A DNA stretch of 64,000 bases from IMG/VR virus record IMGVR_UViG_3300031964_000784. One strand, written 5' to 3'. The notes beneath the pieces were generated by a model. It was not told the origin of the DNA, ran no database searches, and saw nothing but the letters and a program-made list of their open reading frames with translations. Source of the DNA: a virus. The translations under genes and the position numbers were made by a program. Below, in pieces: positions 2,727-38,811 of the stretch. The first letter of the stretch is position 1; each line of letters starts with the position of its first letter.

Positions 2727-3122
2727 ATGATCTTAACAAGCGCATTGCTGTGTTTAAGCCTCAATTTGTACCACGAATCACGCGGAGAAATGATACCTGG
2801 ACAGTACGCTGTCGCAATGGTCACGATGAATCGCGCCAATAGCAACCCGGATAATGTTTGCAAGGTCGTTCTAAAGCCGCATCAGTTTAGCTGGACGACA
2901 AAGATGGTGAAGGGTAACCAGCTAACACAAGCTGGCGAACCGAAAGAAGAGCATGCGTGGTCGGTAGCGCAGACGATCGCCAAAGTAGTGCTGTCGGGCC
3001 GGTTTCGCGACTTCACCGATGGAGCGAAGTTCTACCATGCCAACTACGTGAAGCCAAAGTGGCGTCTGTCGATGGTGCAAACAAAGGTACTTGGACATCA
3101 CATTTTTTATCGTCAAGCATAA
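2727..3122 (+). CDS. SleB-like cell wall hydrolase (Hydrolase_2 family)
   Basis: CLSLNLYHESRGE...GQYAVAMVTMNR...VCKVV..PHQFSW...TDGAKFYHA...LGHHIFY. Confidence 0.9.
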   Translation: MILTSALLCLSLNLYHESRGEMIPGQYAVAMVTMNRANSNPDNVCKVVLKPHQFSWTTKMVKGNQLTQAGEPKEEHAWSVAQTIAKVVLSGRFRDFTDGAKFYHANYVKPKWRLSMVQTKVLGHHIFYRQA

Positions 3123-17904: not shown

Positions 17905-18243
17905 ATGAAAGACTACTTTCGCTTCGTCGCCATCGTCCTGCTGATTATCTTGACGCTTGGGCTATTCGGTTTCGCCGGCAACCTACTGGGCTTCTTCAGC
18001 TTCGCCTTCTTTGCACCAAAGGTCGAGCAGGTTCGCTACAACACGTTCAAGAACGGTCAAGCCTACAACGACGGAATGATGCACGACCTGGAAGACGTGA
18101 AGATGGAATACAACAACGCCACCCCAGACCAGAAGGTCATGTTGCGCGCCATTGCTTTGCGCCGTTTAAGCGTCTACGACACCAACAGGTTACCGCCTGA
18201 CCTTCAACAATTCTCCCTCCAACTTCAAGGAAATGCCCAATGA
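17905..18243 (+). CDS. membrane-anchored phage protein
   Basis: N-terminal TM; FAPKVEQVRYNTFKNGQAYNDGM. Confidence 0.75.
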   Translation: MKDYFRFVAIVLLIILTLGLFGFAGNLLGFFSFAFFAPKVEQVRYNTFKNGQAYNDGMMHDLEDVKMEYNNATPDQKVMLRAIALRRLSVYDTNRLPPDLQQFSLQLQGNAQ

Positions 18244-18752
18244 AAAAACTAACCCTCGCTTTCGCCGTTATATTCACTCTGGCCCTTGCCGGCTGCGAAG
18301 AGCAATCCCCGCGTCCGGTGCCGGCCGATGTCCAGCAACGCCAGCAGCAGGAACAAATCTCGCAGCAAGGCAACGCCGTCGTCGGCATGCCTGCCATCAC
18401 ACGCTTCGCCGAGAAGAAAATGATGCGCGATATCCTCGAAATGCGCGACAAGATGGTGCCAACCACCACGTACACGCTGGACATGAATGGCAAGCTGCAC
18501 AAGCTCTGCGACAGCCTGGGCTTCGGGCTGCCAGGGGCTACGCAGTACACCAACCCCGCCAAGATCGACTGGCGCGGCGACAGCACTCACGGCTATGCCA
18601 GCGGCGTGATTCCGCAGGCAGACCCCAATGGCTTATTTTCACCTTCGTCCGATGAGGGAACTTACGTTATGTGTAAAGACCCGCATAGCGACAAAATTGC
18701 GCCGGTTCGCATGGAGCCACGCACGATCATAAGTCCGTTCCCGCTGGACTGA
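18240..18752 (+). CDS. phage lipoprotein
   Basis: Lipobox LAGC; CDSLGFGLPGATQYTNP...PQADPNGLFSP...GTYVMC. Confidence 0.8.
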   Translation: MKKLTLAFAVIFTLALAGCEEQSPRPVPADVQQRQQQEQISQQGNAVVGMPAITRFAEKKMMRDILEMRDKMVPTTTYTLDMNGKLHKLCDSLGFGLPGATQYTNPAKIDWRGDSTHGYASGVIPQADPNGLFSPSSDEGTYVMCKDPHSDKIAPVRMEPRTIISPFPLD

Positions 18753-33008: not shown

Positions 33009-33412
33009 TAGCGCAACGCTGCCGGTAACGCCTAAAAGCCGCCTATTCAGGCGGCTTAGTCATTAGCGCTGGAGCCTATGTGGCGCCAACCTTATCAGGA
33101 GTGGCATTCCTGCACACATAAGGCGGTTTGGTCAGTTCGGCATCAAGCGCTCGGATCGGCGCCTAAATGCGTCAAATCCTAGGATCGGTCGAAAATCCTC
33201 GGAATCGCCTACTGATATGAATGTGCAGGCGTGCATGTGCGAATATCATGCTTTTATTTGGAGCGTCAAGTGATTTTTACGTGTCCGCGTTAAAACAACA
33301 TGCAAAAATAAATCACACAAAAGCATGAAAACATATTGCATGAGAAAATAAAGCATGAGACTATGTGTCTACTGTATCGCGTGATGCAGACAACGAGATA
33401 AGAAAGCAAATC

Positions 33413-34195
33413 ATGACAACATCGACAACTAAAGCGCTGAGTGAAAAACAAATCGCCGCAAACGTAAAACGCGCCGCGACACTCGCAGCGAAGAAACTTG
33501 TAAAAGAGCAAGAAATCGCAACACTTGCCGCGCTCGAAGCATTGGTTCAACCTGAAACACTAGCAGCAATCGAACCTGAAGCGATTGAAGCAATCGCTGA
33601 AGAAACAAGCGAAGAAAAGCCCGGTTTTTGCGCTAAGTGGTTGATGGTCTTGAATTCGCGTATCGCTGAAGTGTATAGCAAGGACACAGAAAACGTGATT
33701 AAGTACATCACGAAATCGAGTGTTGCAATTGACAACACTGCATCAAAGCCACACTTTGCTGAAATCGCACGCACTATCATTGTTAAGTCACGTAATGCAG
33801 ACAACAAAACAAACAAACGCGATTTTGTTGCCGTCAAAGTGCTGGTGAAAGTCGCACATATCATGTGCGCGCTCGGCCAAGGTTTGAAAAGCGAAATTGA
33901 CAATCACACACAGATTATCGGCCACCAATTGCGCAAATTGATTTACTTGACGGCAATAACTGCAAAGGTAATTCAATGCAAACGCATTGTGTATGATGAA
34001 ATGGATACAGTGCAACAAATCGACCTGAAACACACTGCGAACTACCGGGAGGGTACAGTATCAACACAGGTATCTAGTTCGCGCCAGGCTCTTGATATTC
34101 TCGGTATTTGCTCAATCGTCAAAGGCAAGAAAGATGATGTTATCTCATTGCAAGAGAACGATCGCCGCAATGATTTTGTTGCATTGTTCGCATAA
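33413..34195 (+). CDS. hypothetical protein, remote paralog-like to 22723-23595
   Basis: 260 aa, AT-richer codons; FVAVKV.VKV...GTVSTQVSSSRQAL.ILGI. Confidence 0.75.
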   Translation: MTTSTTKALSEKQIAANVKRAATLAAKKLVKEQEIATLAALEALVQPETLAAIEPEAIEAIAEETSEEKPGFCAKWLMVLNSRIAEVYSKDTENVIKYITKSSVAIDNTASKPHFAEIARTIIVKSRNADNKTNKRDFVAVKVLVKVAHIMCALGQGLKSEIDNHTQIIGHQLRKLIYLTAITAKVIQCKRIVYDEMDTVQQIDLKHTANYREGTVSTQVSSSRQALDILGICSIVKGKKDDVISLQENDRRNDFVALFA

Positions 34196-34210
34196 GTCAC
34201 GACTGAGTTA
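34193..34210. promoter_or_regulatory. palindromic operator
   Basis: TAAGTCA-CGAC-TGAGTTA; TAA is a stop codon. Confidence 0.75.
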
Positions 34211-34264
34211 AGCAAGCGGGTAAAACCGCTTGCAATCAATCAAATCACTATAGGTTATACCATC

Positions 34265-34441
34265 ATGTCAGATTTTTACTTTGTCGCGCTAATCGAAGTT
34301 TTAAACGAATCGCAAGACCATGCAAACGTATTGCGAGCGCGCGAACAGATCAAAGCGAACCGGGTGGAGGCGATCAAGCGCGCACAGATCAAGCAAAAAG
34401 AATATCTTCAAAGAGATTTCACAGTCATCGATAAGAAGTAA
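34265..34441 (+). CDS. small hypothetical protein
   Basis: 58-aa ORF (below track cutoff). Confidence 0.45.
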   Translation: MSDFYFVALIEVLNESQDHANVLRAREQIKANRVEAIKRAQIKQKEYLQRDFTVIDKK

Positions 34442-34461
34442 CAAAACAATGTCAAGTGAGA

Positions 34462-34479
34462 TAAATCATTAGTGACTTA
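34462..34479. promoter_or_regulatory. palindromic operator
   Basis: TAAATCA-TTAG-TGACTTA. Confidence 0.7.
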
Positions 34480-34705
34480 TACGCAACGCTTGACAGGTTG
34501 AATGAGGAAAGGGCTTGACGGGGCAGAGGAATGAAAGTCCTAGAAGGATTCAGGCCCCTTGGTGGCCCTGCCTTCCTCGTTCCGACCCTGGAAATGAGAC
34601 CCTTATAGAAATTCCGGGAAAATCCGCCGGAGACTCCTTATAGATTCTTGCCGCGTGCTAACATCTATCCGCGCTTTGCTCACTGACCCGCAGCCACGGA
34701 GAAAA

Positions 34706-35395
34706 ATGATTATGAAGCTGTTTTCAATATTGTCGGTACTGGCAACGCTCCCAATTCTTACCTCTTGCACAAAGCAACACGATGAATTTGTCGGCACCTG
34801 GGGCAACGAATGGATGGGAGGGACGGTACATTTCGTCGTAACCAAAGATGGCAGCGACTCATTTATCGTCAAAGAGGTGCTTTTGGAAAATGGGGCCATA
34901 ATTTCGACGAGCGTGGGCAAGGTCGTTAATGATCAACTTGTCTTGAATGATGGCACCGGACTGTTTGGTAAGTTTGCCTACTCACCCTCGGAAAATGCAT
35001 TGGTGGTTATTAATCAGCCGACTTCACCAATCTATCGTCGTGTAGCCACATTGACCGCGAGCGACATAAGCAACGCAAAAAAAGAGATCGACGTAATAGT
35101 AAAGCCAGCTTTTGTTGCAACTGGAACAGCTTGTTCGACAAACTTTCCAGGGGCGCCCGACATCAGCAACGCAGTCCTTGGGTTGCCTTCAGCGTCAAGT
35201 ATGTCTGGCGCGTATATTGATTCTGTTTTTACCGGAGGCACTGAATCTGAGCCGACAATAACAGTCACCTTTAAAACGATTGGAAATGCGCTCCCTGCTG
35301 GGCGAACCTTGGTCTATAGAGGAGTTTGTTCGACGACAGGTCTTGCGTGGACGGTTAGCGGCACTGGATTGGAAATATTGAACGCGAAGGGGTAG
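34706..35395 (+). CDS. lipoprotein with C-terminal type IV pilin-like globular domain
   Basis: Lipobox LTSC; NAVLGLPSASSMSGAYIDSVF...TITVTF...GRTLVY...GLAWT resembles pilin head. Confidence 0.6.
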   Translation: MIMKLFSILSVLATLPILTSCTKQHDEFVGTWGNEWMGGTVHFVVTKDGSDSFIVKEVLLENGAIISTSVGKVVNDQLVLNDGTGLFGKFAYSPSENALVVINQPTSPIYRRVATLTASDISNAKKEIDVIVKPAFVATGTACSTNFPGAPDISNAVLGLPSASSMSGAYIDSVFTGGTESEPTITVTFKTIGNALPAGRTLVYRGVCSTTGLAWTVSGTGLEILNAKG

Positions 35396-35397
35396 AC

Positions 35398-35592
35398 ATG
35401 ACGATGAGAACCTATACTTGGTATCGATGTACTTGCGGCCATCGTGGTGCCGTGGTCGTCAGCGAAAACGACCAGCCTTACTCCAAAATGTGGGAAAGTA
35501 CGAGCTTGAAGGAACTCGCCGGCACATCTGAACACCCTGTTTGCCCCAAGTGTAAAGCCGTCCTGTCCGCATCGAACATCGAACACGAATAG
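35398..35592 (+). CDS. small zinc-finger protein
   Basis: CTCGH...CPKC. Confidence 0.6.
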   Translation: MTMRTYTWYRCTCGHRGAVVVSENDQPYSKMWESTSLKELAGTSEHPVCPKCKAVLSASNIEHE

Positions 35593-35601
35593 GGAAATGC
35601 C

Positions 35602-35751
35602 ATGACGCGCTTTATTATCTACAGCATCATATATTCTGCAATTTTCTGGCTCCTCTTCCCGCCTGGTGACAAGTCCTACGCTATCGTCGGCGGACTGCTA
35701 GTTGCGGCGGTGTCGATAGGCGTCTCGAAGCTATTCAAAATCGGCAAATGA
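35602..35751 (+). CDS. small two-TM membrane protein
   Basis: RBS AGGGA; 49 aa, hydrophobic. Confidence 0.5.
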   Translation: MTRFIIYSIIYSAIFWLLFPPGDKSYAIVGGLLVAAVSIGVSKLFKIGK

Positions 35752-35989: not shown

Positions 35990-36322
35990 TCAGCAGCCAA
36001 TCCTTCGCAAGAAGAAATAATAGACCCACATTACCAATAACAATAGCCCGTAGATCAGAGTGGGCCGGACGCGTCGCGCACGATAGGATCGTATTGCCCC
36101 AACCACCAGAAGACCCAATATCAGTATCCCGGTAAGCGGAACAAAGATATCGGACATGTCGTCGCTTTCGGTTGGAAGATCGCAAAACGTCGTTACCTTG
36201 CCGTCATGAACCTCGCCCTCGAAAGCGTCGTATGGTGAGGTTGTCCCAATGAGTATAAGCAGCGCCACCAATAACGAGTATATTGGCGCGATTAGGGCCA
36301 TTAAGAATTTACGAACTTTCAT
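35990..36322 (-). CDS. three-TM immunity-like protein (DUF2645/YjeO-like)
   Basis: TM-loop(C...DD)-TM-TM with C-terminal W.YYFFLRRIGC. Confidence 0.6.
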   Translation of the reverse strand: MKVRKFLMALIAPIYSLLVALLILIGTTSPYDAFEGEVHDGKVTTFCDLPTESDDMSDIFVPLTGILILGLLVVGAIRSYRARRVRPTLIYGLLLLVMWVYYFFLRRIGC

Positions 36323-36323
36323 A

Positions 36324-37022
36324 TTAGATTCCCAGCAACCCTGTTACTTCCATGCGATGCTCCATCATTGACCTACCGTATGATGACCATTCGCGCTTCA
36401 GCGTATCTTTCGGTGAGGCCATTGAGTCTTTCAAATCCTTTATTGAGCGTGCCGTCCCTCGGTTATAGCGAATCCCCGCCACCATAAATTGCTCATCAGT
36501 AAGTCTGCGTGTATTGGCTGTTGGGTAGTCACGCAAAATCGTCTGCCGCAGGAACTTCGCTACAACGTCGATATTGAACACATCAGTTTCAAGACAGTCA
36601 GTCAGCTCTCCTTGCTGCTCACGAGTTAATGGCGCACCTTTGTAACCCATAGCCGATAATGCATTCCTTAACTGAATCTTGATCGCCCCTTCAGACGTTG
36701 CCATTGGATCACCCGTTCCTGGTACATACTGACGCAGAGGCAGGGCGAAATGATGTTTAATGTAAGGAGCCTTTCCACCAGCTTCATTGTAAGCGACGCA
36801 CCCGAGAAGATCGGGGGGTATCTGCTGCAAATTTGCCGAATAAAGTATCCGCAATTTGTTATAGGACACCCACGCCCTTTTATACGCCCATATTTGCTGC
36901 ATGCCGCCATGTGTATGTAGCCATTTCCAGTTTGGCGTAGCCCTCCCCGAGATCATTTGCCAAGTTGTCCATTTCGGAAAATTTTGCGGGGTGTACGTAC
37001 AAAATTGGTTCGAGTCTGCCAT
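36324..37022 (-). CDS. lysozyme-like fold antibacterial effector (T6SS cargo-like)
   Basis: IPPDLLGCVAYNEAGG, TSEGAIKIQLR, FNIDVVAKFL, GIRYNRG. Confidence 0.6.
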   Translation of the reverse strand: MADSNQFCTYTPQNFPKWTTWQMISGRATPNWKWLHTHGGMQQIWAYKRAWVSYNKLRILYSANLQQIPPDLLGCVAYNEAGGKAPYIKHHFALPLRQYVPGTGDPMATSEGAIKIQLRNALSAMGYKGAPLTREQQGELTDCLETDVFNIDVVAKFLRQTILRDYPTANTRRLTDEQFMVAGIRYNRGTARSIKDLKDSMASPKDTLKREWSSYGRSMMEHRMEVTGLLGI

Positions 37023-37256
37023 TGTCGTTTAACCATCGAAAGTAAAATTTTCGCTATTATACTTGGCTTTTCGACAATTGTTCACCTGTCATAAATGACA
37101 GGCTGCAATACACTGCCGCCGCAGATCGTTGCAGCACAAGCCGGCACGCACTTTCGCCATTACTTGCGCGTATATCAGAAACGCAATACAATGAAGCCTG
37201 ACAGAAGTGACGCACGGGGTCGTTCCCCTATTAAGGTTTCATGGAGTCCGCACTGT

Positions 37257-37329
37257 ACCACCGTCTTCCAAAGGATAGGCTGCCTCCCTAACGAAGAGGA
37301 GAATACCGGTTCGAGTCCGGTCGGTGGCG
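37257..37329 (+). tRNA. degenerate tRNA (Arg-like body; anticodon loop reads AAC or expanded ACG)
   Basis: Acceptor CCACCG/CGGTGG, perfect T-arm ACCGG-TTCGAGT-CCGGT, D-loop GGATAG; weak D-stem, mismatched anticodon stem, no CCA. Confidence 0.65.
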
Positions 37330-37384
37330 CTTTTACAATAAGGCAGGGCCGCATCCAGCAATGGGCGCGTTTCGTTAATCCCTA

Positions 37385-37946: not shown

Positions 37947-38588
37947 ATGATGATATTTGGAATCCTGAACCAAAAGGGCGGCGTCGGCAAGACCACGCTA
38001 TCCGTCAACCTGGCCGCATCATTGGCCCGCAATGGCAGCCGCATCCTTCTGATCGACGCCGACCCGCAGGGGAGCGCCCTGGATTGGGCGGCGGCGAGGG
38101 CCGAGGGCGCAGAAGTGACTGCCTTGTTCTCGGTGGTCGGCCTGCCCCGGCCATCTGTCCACAAGGAGATCGGGGCCTTGTCGGCCGGCTACGACCATGT
38201 GATCATCGACGGCCCGCCGCGCGTGACCGACCTGGCACGATCGGCCATGATGGCGTCGGATGTGATCGTTATACCGGTGCAGCCAAGTCCATACGATGTG
38301 TGGGCGGCTGCGGAGGTGATAAAATTGGTCAAAGAGGCTTCTGTATATAAGGAAGCACTGAAATCATGTTTTGTGATAAACCGCAAAATCGCAAATACTG
38401 CGATCGGTAGGGACATTGGAGCCGGTCTGGCGGCTTATAGCACGCACGTACTAAATGCGGCAGTCGCGCAGCGTGTCGTGTTCGCTGAAGCGGTTGCGCA
38501 GGGCAAGTCAATTTTCGAGATTGACGAGCGCGGGAAGGGCGCCAGGGAGATCCAAGACGTCGCAGACGAACTCATAAAGGGGTGGTGA
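37947..38588 (+). CDS. parA: ParA partition ATPase (short, type Ib/ParF-like)
   Basis: [34 protein letters not shown]; no N-terminal HTH. Confidence 0.95.
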
Positions 38589-38589
38589 A

Positions 38590-38811
38590 ATGGCAACGGG
38601 CGGCAAGAAGGTTGTAATCGGGGCGAAACCTAATGTCGCCCGAACGCCAGACAATTGGGTCGACGACAAAGCATCGTCCGACCCAACCAAGCGGCTGACA
38701 CTGGACATACCGGTCGAGTTGCACCGGAGGATCAAGGCCGACTGCGCGGTAAAGGATGCCAGTATGGTCGAGGAGATTACTAAGCTGCTGGAAAAGCGCT
38801 GGCCGAAGTGA
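38590..38811 (+). CDS. ParG-like ribbon-helix-helix centromere-binding protein
   Basis: KRLTLDIPVELHRRIKADCA...SMVEEITKLL directly after parA. Confidence 0.85.
   Translation: MATGGKKVVIGAKPNVARTPDNWVDDKASSDPTKRLTLDIPVELHRRIKADCAVKDASMVEEITKLLEKRWPK

Follow-up and report, generated by a model that had tools for sequence, protein, structure and literature searches.

Introduction

The gene for Tse3, a type VI secretion system (T6SS) effector of Pseudomonas aeruginosa, lies away from the T6SS cluster, delivery of the protein is Hcp-dependent, and its partner Tsi3 is a periplasmic protein. The titles of the corresponding structure entries (PDB 4luq, 4m5f and 3wa5) describe Tse3, also called Tge1, as a peptidoglycan muramidase effector of type VI secretion whose structure was determined bound to its immunity protein Tsi3. 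Effector-immunity modules are also known from temperate elements, and Burkholderia gladioli phage AB4 carries a PAAR2-TseV-TsiV cluster (PMC13366799, citing Jamet et al. 2017, PMC5576092). Here we describe a pair of adjacent genes, which we label X and Y, in a 64,000-nt stretch of viral DNA (IMG/VR record IMGVR_UViG_3300031964_000784); this whole stretch is referred to as the window, and its numbering is used throughout. We propose, with a probability of about 0.72, that X-Y is an orphan T6SS-type effector-immunity cassette, acquired horizontally and carried as accessory cargo by an SSU5-like phage-plasmid, and that carrier cells probably gain both a weapon and immunity from it. The locus consists of the following features:

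36324-37022, minus strand: X, a 232-aa stand-alone protein with a predicted lysozyme-like fold, a predicted peptidoglycan glycosidase without export signal
35990-36322, minus strand: Y, a 110-aa DUF2645 membrane protein with three transmembrane (TM) helices, the predicted cognate immunity protein
37056-37084, minus strand: sigma-70-like promoter candidate (TGAACA-17 nt-TATAAT, 10/12 matches), ending 34 nt 5' of the X start codon

Tse3 is the best structural match of X, but the two have no detectable sequence relation, X measures 232 aa against ~400 aa for Tse3, and Y is a three-pass membrane protein whereas Tsi3 is periplasmic. X also has its fold in common with family 1 lytic transglycosylases and goose-type lysozymes (MltE, MltC, Slt70 and MltF; Z 7.3-8.8), and we take its RYNRG motif to resemble their AYNAG motif. 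Unlike these enzymes, X has no Pfam SLT match and neither signal peptide nor lipobox, and it is paired with a putative immunity gene, features that point to a weapon more than to an autolysin with a housekeeping role. The same two-gene family is found at the hcp-X-ygiZ and epmA-side loci of Enterobacterales, in the same X-then-DUF2645 order and with X identities of 30-42%; those loci are chromosomal, whereas the copy in the window resides on a phage-plasmid and belongs to a separate, well-supported clade without adjacent hcp. YgiZ and YjeO of Escherichia coli are namesakes of Pfam DUF2645. In Pectobacterium, a preprint using random barcode transposon sequencing (RB-TnSeq) reported strong fitness defects for mutants in DUF2645 genes located beside Hcp genes, which were proposed to be T6SS immunity genes (10.64898/2026.10.02.755747). 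Phage AB4 resembles our element in being a temperate element with an effector-immunity module that depends on the secretion machine of the host, but it brings its own PAAR carrier and a nuclease toxin, whereas the window has no carrier gene, a predicted cell-wall toxin and an extrachromosomal SSU5-like vehicle. Our literature search found no named description of X, although its coverage was incomplete and this is not proof of absence. A Pantoea lysozyme-like effector and the Hcp2B-XmtU module of avian pathogenic E. coli (APEC) are separate systems.

Results

Layout and composition of the X-Y pair

A preliminary description, made from the letters of the stretch alone, had recognized a minus-strand bicistron with a 1-bp gap encoding proteins of 232 and 110 aa, and both coordinates and lengths were borne out. 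The X/Y junction reads TAA-t-ATG, and the single intervening base suggests translational coupling of Y to X. The promoter candidate before X comes from a consensus scan and is suggestive only: sigma-70-like sites are no commoner in the region than in shuffled sequence, and the candidate sequence is not conserved upstream of X in its closest relative, a 76%-identical Burkholderiaceae copy (L005).

The pair is indeed AT-richer, as had been noted. Its GC content is 48.6%, against a window mean of 54.2%, and only 4% of equal-size segments have a lower value. GC content at third codon positions (GC3) is 0.51 in X and 0.57 in Y, compared with 0.69-0.75 for backbone genes (terminase, portal, ribonucleotide reductase (RNR), SbcC, helicase and ParA). 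The plus-strand open reading frames (ORFs) just preceding the pair (33.3-35.4 kb) are also low in GC3, and the whole stretch therefore looks recently acquired.

A predicted lysozyme-like fold for X

X matched no Pfam family at E up to 1, SLT (PF01464) included, and no NCBIfam family; it did match phrog_11932 (7e-26), a PHROG annotated as of unknown function. Its AlphaFold2 (AF2) model (pLDDT 81, pTM 0.80) was used for a search against representative structures, in which the best match was Tse3 (Z 9.7, 180 residues aligned), with MltE (8.8), MltC (8.7), Slt (8.0), MltF (7.9), Slt70 (7.7) and g-type lysozyme (7.3) below it. The first 19 VIA matches (Z 5.7-9.7) are without exception lysozyme-fold proteins that cleave peptidoglycan or chitin, and with Foldseek all top ranks were taken by MltE (E about 1e-2). 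Because the top structural matches are all lysozyme-fold enzymes, X is, as far as its model allows, a protein of lysozyme-like fold. An Atlas neighbour of X that carries an SLT label (score 0.93, 142 shared features) is a lead only.

An alignment of 19 homologs revealed the invariant residues of X: E80 (in N79-E80-x-G-G), T109-S110-x-G112, Q117, D147, R185-Y-N-R-G189 and Y215-G-R. A further conserved motif, N150..V153.A155..L158, also falls in invariant family columns, and the X of the window is full length and keeps every one of these residues. Of the lysozyme- and SLT-like motifs named in the preliminary description, NEAGG, N..V.A..L and RYN.G are present in these invariant columns; the spacing it gave for a fourth, 'S.G..IQ', was one residue short, the true form being S110-E-G-A-I-K-I-Q117. 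When X was compared with E. coli MltE by hhalign, the sole alignment placed E80-A-G-G on the catalytic E64-S-G-G, with a probability of just 6%, and the structural register, in which residues 44-226 of the model lie on residues 28-203 of the matched chain, agrees with the pairing of E80 and E64. The predicted chemistry of X is that of either a muramidase or a lytic transglycosylase. A profile of the 19 homologs searched against all PDB sequences gave no Tse3 match at E up to 10 and nothing above chance level. The N-terminus of X lacks a hydrophobic stretch, and Pfam gave the protein no PAAR, VgrG or Rhs domain; the absence of a signal peptide and of these domains agrees with what was first described.

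Y, a DUF2645 membrane partner

Y passes the Pfam threshold for DUF2645 (27.8 bits, cut-off 25), its residues 12-110 aligning with positions 4-98 of the 98-position model. It has three hydrophobic spans, and its AF2 model, computed with 19 cognates as alignment (pLDDT 86), contains three long helices (3-27, 51-82 and 87-108), the first two joined by a structured loop, so the earlier characterization of Y as a 110-aa, three-TM, DUF2645-like protein holds. The loop (28-58) contains nine acidic residues and one basic residue. Two cysteines are invariant, one of them in the loop (C47) and the other C-terminal (C110). Basic residues at the N-terminus and between helices 2 and 3 suggest that the N-terminus is inside, with the acidic loop and both cysteines predicted to be on the periplasmic side. 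Y gave no PHROG family, no PADLOC match and no viral structure match (best E 1.5).

The X-DUF2645 family and its genomic company

An exhaustive search with the X profile retrieved 411 representative clusters, 331 of them at E <= 1e-10. Many members are longer and have a C-terminal X domain, which in the sampled examples is preceded by PAAR, Rhs repeats or an extracellular contractile injection system (eCIS)-core domain, often also with the peptidoglycan-binding OmpA or PG_binding_1. The family thus behaves like a polymorphic-toxin module directed against the cell wall. Of the 25 loci that we examined, 21 are genome contigs, 3 are annotated plasmids and 1 is an IMG/VR provirus. X is immediately followed by a DUF2645 gene in 23 of these loci, and hcp adjoins the pair in 13. 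The secretion gene linked to the stand-alone family is thus hcp, and not vgrG or PAAR as the preliminary description had supposed. Examples are the E. coli arrangement mdaB/hcp-X-ygiZ/qseC, a Rahnella plasmid, a Serratia plasmid and a conjugative F-type plasmid. In several Enterobacteriaceae, X-DUF2645 lies without hcp between epmA and mscM; at two of these loci (L015 and L023) X is truncated and the DUF2645 gene beside it is intact.

Among 5,426 complete E. coli genomes, the whole hcp-X-ygiZ module is found in 1,261 and ygiZ alone in about 3,300 more, and this abundance of ygiZ without X is an orphan-immunity pattern of the sort that T6SS effector-immunity pairs typically show. In E. coli K-12 two DUF2645 genes, yjeO at the epmA/mscM site and ygiZ at the mdaB/qseC site, lie exactly where X-DUF2645 is found in other strains or genera (L003 and L030 are E. 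coli loci). Both K-12 genes have the look of orphan immunity genes. The gene just upstream of yjeO, yjeN, was considered as a decayed remnant of X and rejected, as it has no similarity to the X profile or to the neighbouring full-length homolog.

The sheath protein TssC is encoded by each of the 12 whole genomes whose pairs lack hcp, and the 5 tested for Hcp all encode it, against 1 of 14 control genomes. The module is also found on mobile elements without TssC, namely a P2-like provirus, the Serratia plasmid (which has an annotated baseplate gene aboard as well) and the conjugative F-type plasmid. In the provirus (IMGVR_UViG_3300031372_000449; L004:4178-5695), X, DUF2645 and a convergent hcp are situated within P2-like gene order, between a pair of ~150-aa genes of tail-completion size and genes of baseplate size, as judged by size and order only. 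This provirus is an independent case of phage carriage of the X-DUF2645 module, with its own Hcp. In a metagenome-assembled genome (MAG) of an uncultured gammaproteobacterium (L006; 5669-5745 and 5926-7033), the pair directly follows a tRNA-Pro, downstream of an 801-aa pheT-like ORF, a position that resembles an island integration site. We did not retain a tRNA as part of the cassette: among eight loci a tRNA adjoins the pair in L006 only, and the similarity to L005 stops at the ORF borders.

Origin of the window copy

A maximum-likelihood tree places the X of the window together with a Burkholderiaceae MAG copy and a metagenomic protein to which it is 79% identical (support 99/90), and this group is nested in a clade of environmental beta- and gammaproteobacterial sequences. 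Linkage to hcp is concentrated in the Enterobacterales clades of the tree. DNA similarity to L005 extends from ~3 nt before the X ATG to ~9 nt past the Y stop codon, and the flanks and promoter region of the two pairs are unrelated; since the similarity ends at the ORF borders, X and Y seem to move as a tight unit. Searches of annotated phage and plasmid collections by megablast, with the pair and with the surrounding 15-kb region, returned nothing useful, and a tblastn search of phages with X gave no match.

Carrier element

The window encodes a UvsX-like protein, SbcCD, RNR, ThyX, a UvsW-type helicase, terminase, portal, ParA and a borderline ParG-like protein; ParA is clear, and the ParG match (21.3 bits) is just below the Pfam cut-off of 21.4. 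Among plasmid records the portal has 966 matches, those to Acinetobacter baumannii plasmids of 107-113 kb at 68% identity, and it also matches phage SSU5 and its Klebsiella and Escherichia relatives at about 57%. A tblastx comparison with one Acinetobacter plasmid gave collinear blocks at 12.1-23.5 kb and 41.1-55.2 kb of the window; from 23.6 to 41.0 kb the window has nothing in common with that plasmid, and it is within this unshared stretch that the X-Y pair lies, antisense to the backbone. The portal homology and collinear blocks indicate that the element is an SSU5-like phage-plasmid with the pair in a variable accessory stretch. Membership of the SSU5/pHCM2-like group was judged by homology of virion and replication genes and synteny with plasmid records of ~105-115 kb, plus partition genes, all of which were found; the label of phage-plasmid given in the preliminary description is likewise upheld by the portal and terminase homology and by the synteny.

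Also in keeping with that description, no secretion genes were detected: a hidden Markov model (HMM) built from three enterobacterial Hcp proteins found no Hcp among the ORFs of the window, and a Pfam scan of accessory-region ORFs found no secretion-apparatus domains.

Other features of the window

Further features that bear on the locus or lie elsewhere in the window are:

2727-3122, plus strand: SleB-type cell-wall hydrolase, 131 aa (Pfam Hydrolase_2, 72 bits; phrog_938 'endolysin', 1e-24)
17905-18243, plus strand: 112-aa protein with an N-terminal TM segment, overlapping the next gene by 4 bp
18240-18752, plus strand: 170-aa predicted lipoprotein (signal ends L-A-G-C; phrog_24725, function unknown)
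33365-35751, plus strand: run of low-GC3 (0.44-0.49) ORFs converging on the pair
37257-37330, plus strand: tRNA-Val, anticodon AAC, on the strand opposite X and 235 bp upstream of it (ARAGORN, and Rfam with 36.2 bits against a gathering score of 29)

The SleB-type protein is encoded among DNA-metabolism genes, with no adjacent holin identified, and by its sequence is likely the true endolysin of the element. The gene pair at 17905-18752 resembles a two-component spanin, but its second protein is much longer than typical o-spanins. The run at 33365-35751 encodes a 276-aa protein (unknown PHROGs), a 58-aa ORF, a 246-aa predicted lipoprotein (signal ends L-T-S-C), a 64-aa Cys-rich zinc-ribbon-like protein and a 49-aa membrane peptide; these ORFs received no Pfam or PADLOC assignment, and they may constitute a second accessory module. 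The tRNA-Val would have A34, which is unusual for a bacterial valine tRNA, UAC and GAC being the normal anticodons. The partition pair (37947-38811, plus strand) has a GC content of 58%, above both the backbone and the adjoining low-GC cargo, and in the collinear Acinetobacter relative ParB-family genes are found elsewhere, so that phage-plasmids of this group may be able to swap their partition modules.

Discussion

We consider X-Y to be an orphan toxin-immunity pair of the T6SS type. The idea had been put forward in the preliminary description, and it now draws support from the predicted fold of X, the near-obligate synteny of X and DUF2645, the fusions of the X domain to PAAR, Rhs and eCIS-core domains, the T6SS-positive genomes in which the pair occurs, the orphan immunity genes and the SSU5-like backbone. 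In the mechanism that we envisage, X would be made in the cytoplasm, where it lacks an export signal, and, as the element has no secretion apparatus, would have to ride the chromosomal T6SS of a host that is presumed to possess one. Delivery as Hcp-dependent cargo seems most likely, although the carrier protein is a guess, since both the window and its clade are without a nearby hcp. In the periplasm of a neighbouring cell X would cut the glycan strands of peptidoglycan, with E80 as catalytic acid. Y, as a three-pass inner-membrane protein, would display its acidic periplasmic loop, probably stapled by a Cys47-Cys110 disulfide, and neutralize incoming X in carrier cells by binding. Carriers would thereby gain a weapon together with protection against kin that have the same weapon. 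It may even be that the pair works as a social addiction device, in which carriers fire X through the T6SS, siblings that have lost the element or never acquired it lack Y and are killed, and the maintenance and spread of the extrachromosomal prophage are enforced; we regard this extension as tentative and on balance doubtful.

Several observations weigh against an effector-immunity function. No hcp, vgrG, PAAR or adaptor gene was found in the window, and wherever context is known, members of the window X clade have no adjacent hcp or other secretion gene. The T6SS co-occurrence comes from a sample of 12 genomes, many of them from T6SS-rich Enterobacterales. The portal, looked for as a pointer to the host, was not found in 401 sampled Burkholderiales genomes. 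No sequence profile (Pfam SLT, PDB) detects X, and for a helical protein its fold scores are moderate (Foldseek E ~1e-2, Z <10, hhalign probability 6%). X also has weak fold matches to GT51 glycosyltransferase domains (Z 3-4), which leave lipid II-linked substrates possible, so that its target might be membrane-proximal. To our knowledge, the immunity proteins of known peptidoglycan-hydrolase effectors are soluble or lipid-anchored periplasmic proteins, and a multi-pass protein with an exposed loop of ~30 residues would be unusual among them.

The most serious competing explanation, though an unlikely one, is that Y alone is under selection, protecting carriers from neighbours that fire X-type effectors, and X is a decaying passenger, undelivered for want of a compatible Hcp or T6SS in the host. 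In E. coli, orphan DUF2645 genes greatly outnumber the full module, X is truncated beside an intact partner in L015 and L023, and no secretion gene was found in the window, all as this explanation would have it. Yet a passenger in decay would hardly be expected to be full length with every invariant residue in place, or to be coupled to Y behind a promoter-like site, and the T6SS encoded by 12 of 12 whole genomes with hcp-less pairs also speaks against it. Far less probable is that the pair is a phage lysis cassette, with X as endolysin and Y as a class I-type holin or antiholin. Class I holins have three TM spans, and a signal-less, presumably muralytic enzyme followed by a three-TM protein of ~110 aa does resemble a holin-endolysin pair; X, moreover, matches a PHROG family and weakly resembles phage SLT and goose egg-white lysozyme (GEWL) proteins. 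However, the element has a separate SleB-type endolysin candidate at 2727-3122, which makes a lysis cassette unlikely, and Y has neither a PHROG family nor a viral structure match. Many chromosomes have the pair between housekeeping genes (mdaB/qseC, epmA/mscM), and thousands of E. coli genomes keep Y by itself, which would be unexpected for a lethal holin. In the window itself, the pair runs antisense to the backbone, has a foreign composition and is missing from the collinear relative.

We give equally little credence to a use independent of the T6SS, whether the pair would act in anti-phage defence or post-segregational addiction or X would leave the cell through the virion or a contractile injection system. 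Defence and addiction had been offered as options in the preliminary description, and two observations count in favour of a use of this kind, namely the partition genes that neighbour the pair on its plasmid-like element and the eCIS-core cargo domain of many distant relatives. But neither X nor Y nor any of six neighbouring ORFs has a PADLOC match at E up to 0.01, and X has no eCIS-core domain. Without an export signal X would stay in the cytoplasm of the producer, away from its presumed periplasmic target, and could not therefore kill plasmid-free segregants. Virion delivery fares no better, since SSU5-type phages are siphoviruses, a type that gives no obvious route for cargo loading. The stand-alone members of the family, by contrast, are linked to hcp and to T6SS-positive genomes, which again favours an effector-immunity cassette for the T6SS.

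Phage-borne T6SS and polymorphic toxins have precedents. What is new here is an unnamed X family for which no profile exists, its multi-pass membrane protein as putative immunity partner, and the presence of X-DUF2645, with no carrier gene to accompany it, on an SSU5-like phage-plasmid. As a small, self-contained module is concerned, the predictions made above can be tested directly in bench strains. If our reading is true, it defines a widespread, as yet unnamed family of peptidoglycan-targeting interbacterial toxins, with 411 representative clusters and no Pfam model, and DUF2645 would gain a role in cognate immunity that would explain ygiZ and yjeO of E. coli K-12. SSU5-like phage-plasmids, which are common in Klebsiella, Escherichia, Acinetobacter and Salmonella, would then join the vehicles of T6SS ammunition and immunity. 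Should the social addiction hypothesis also hold, a contact-dependent weapon would enforce the persistence of an extrachromosomal prophage at the level of the population.

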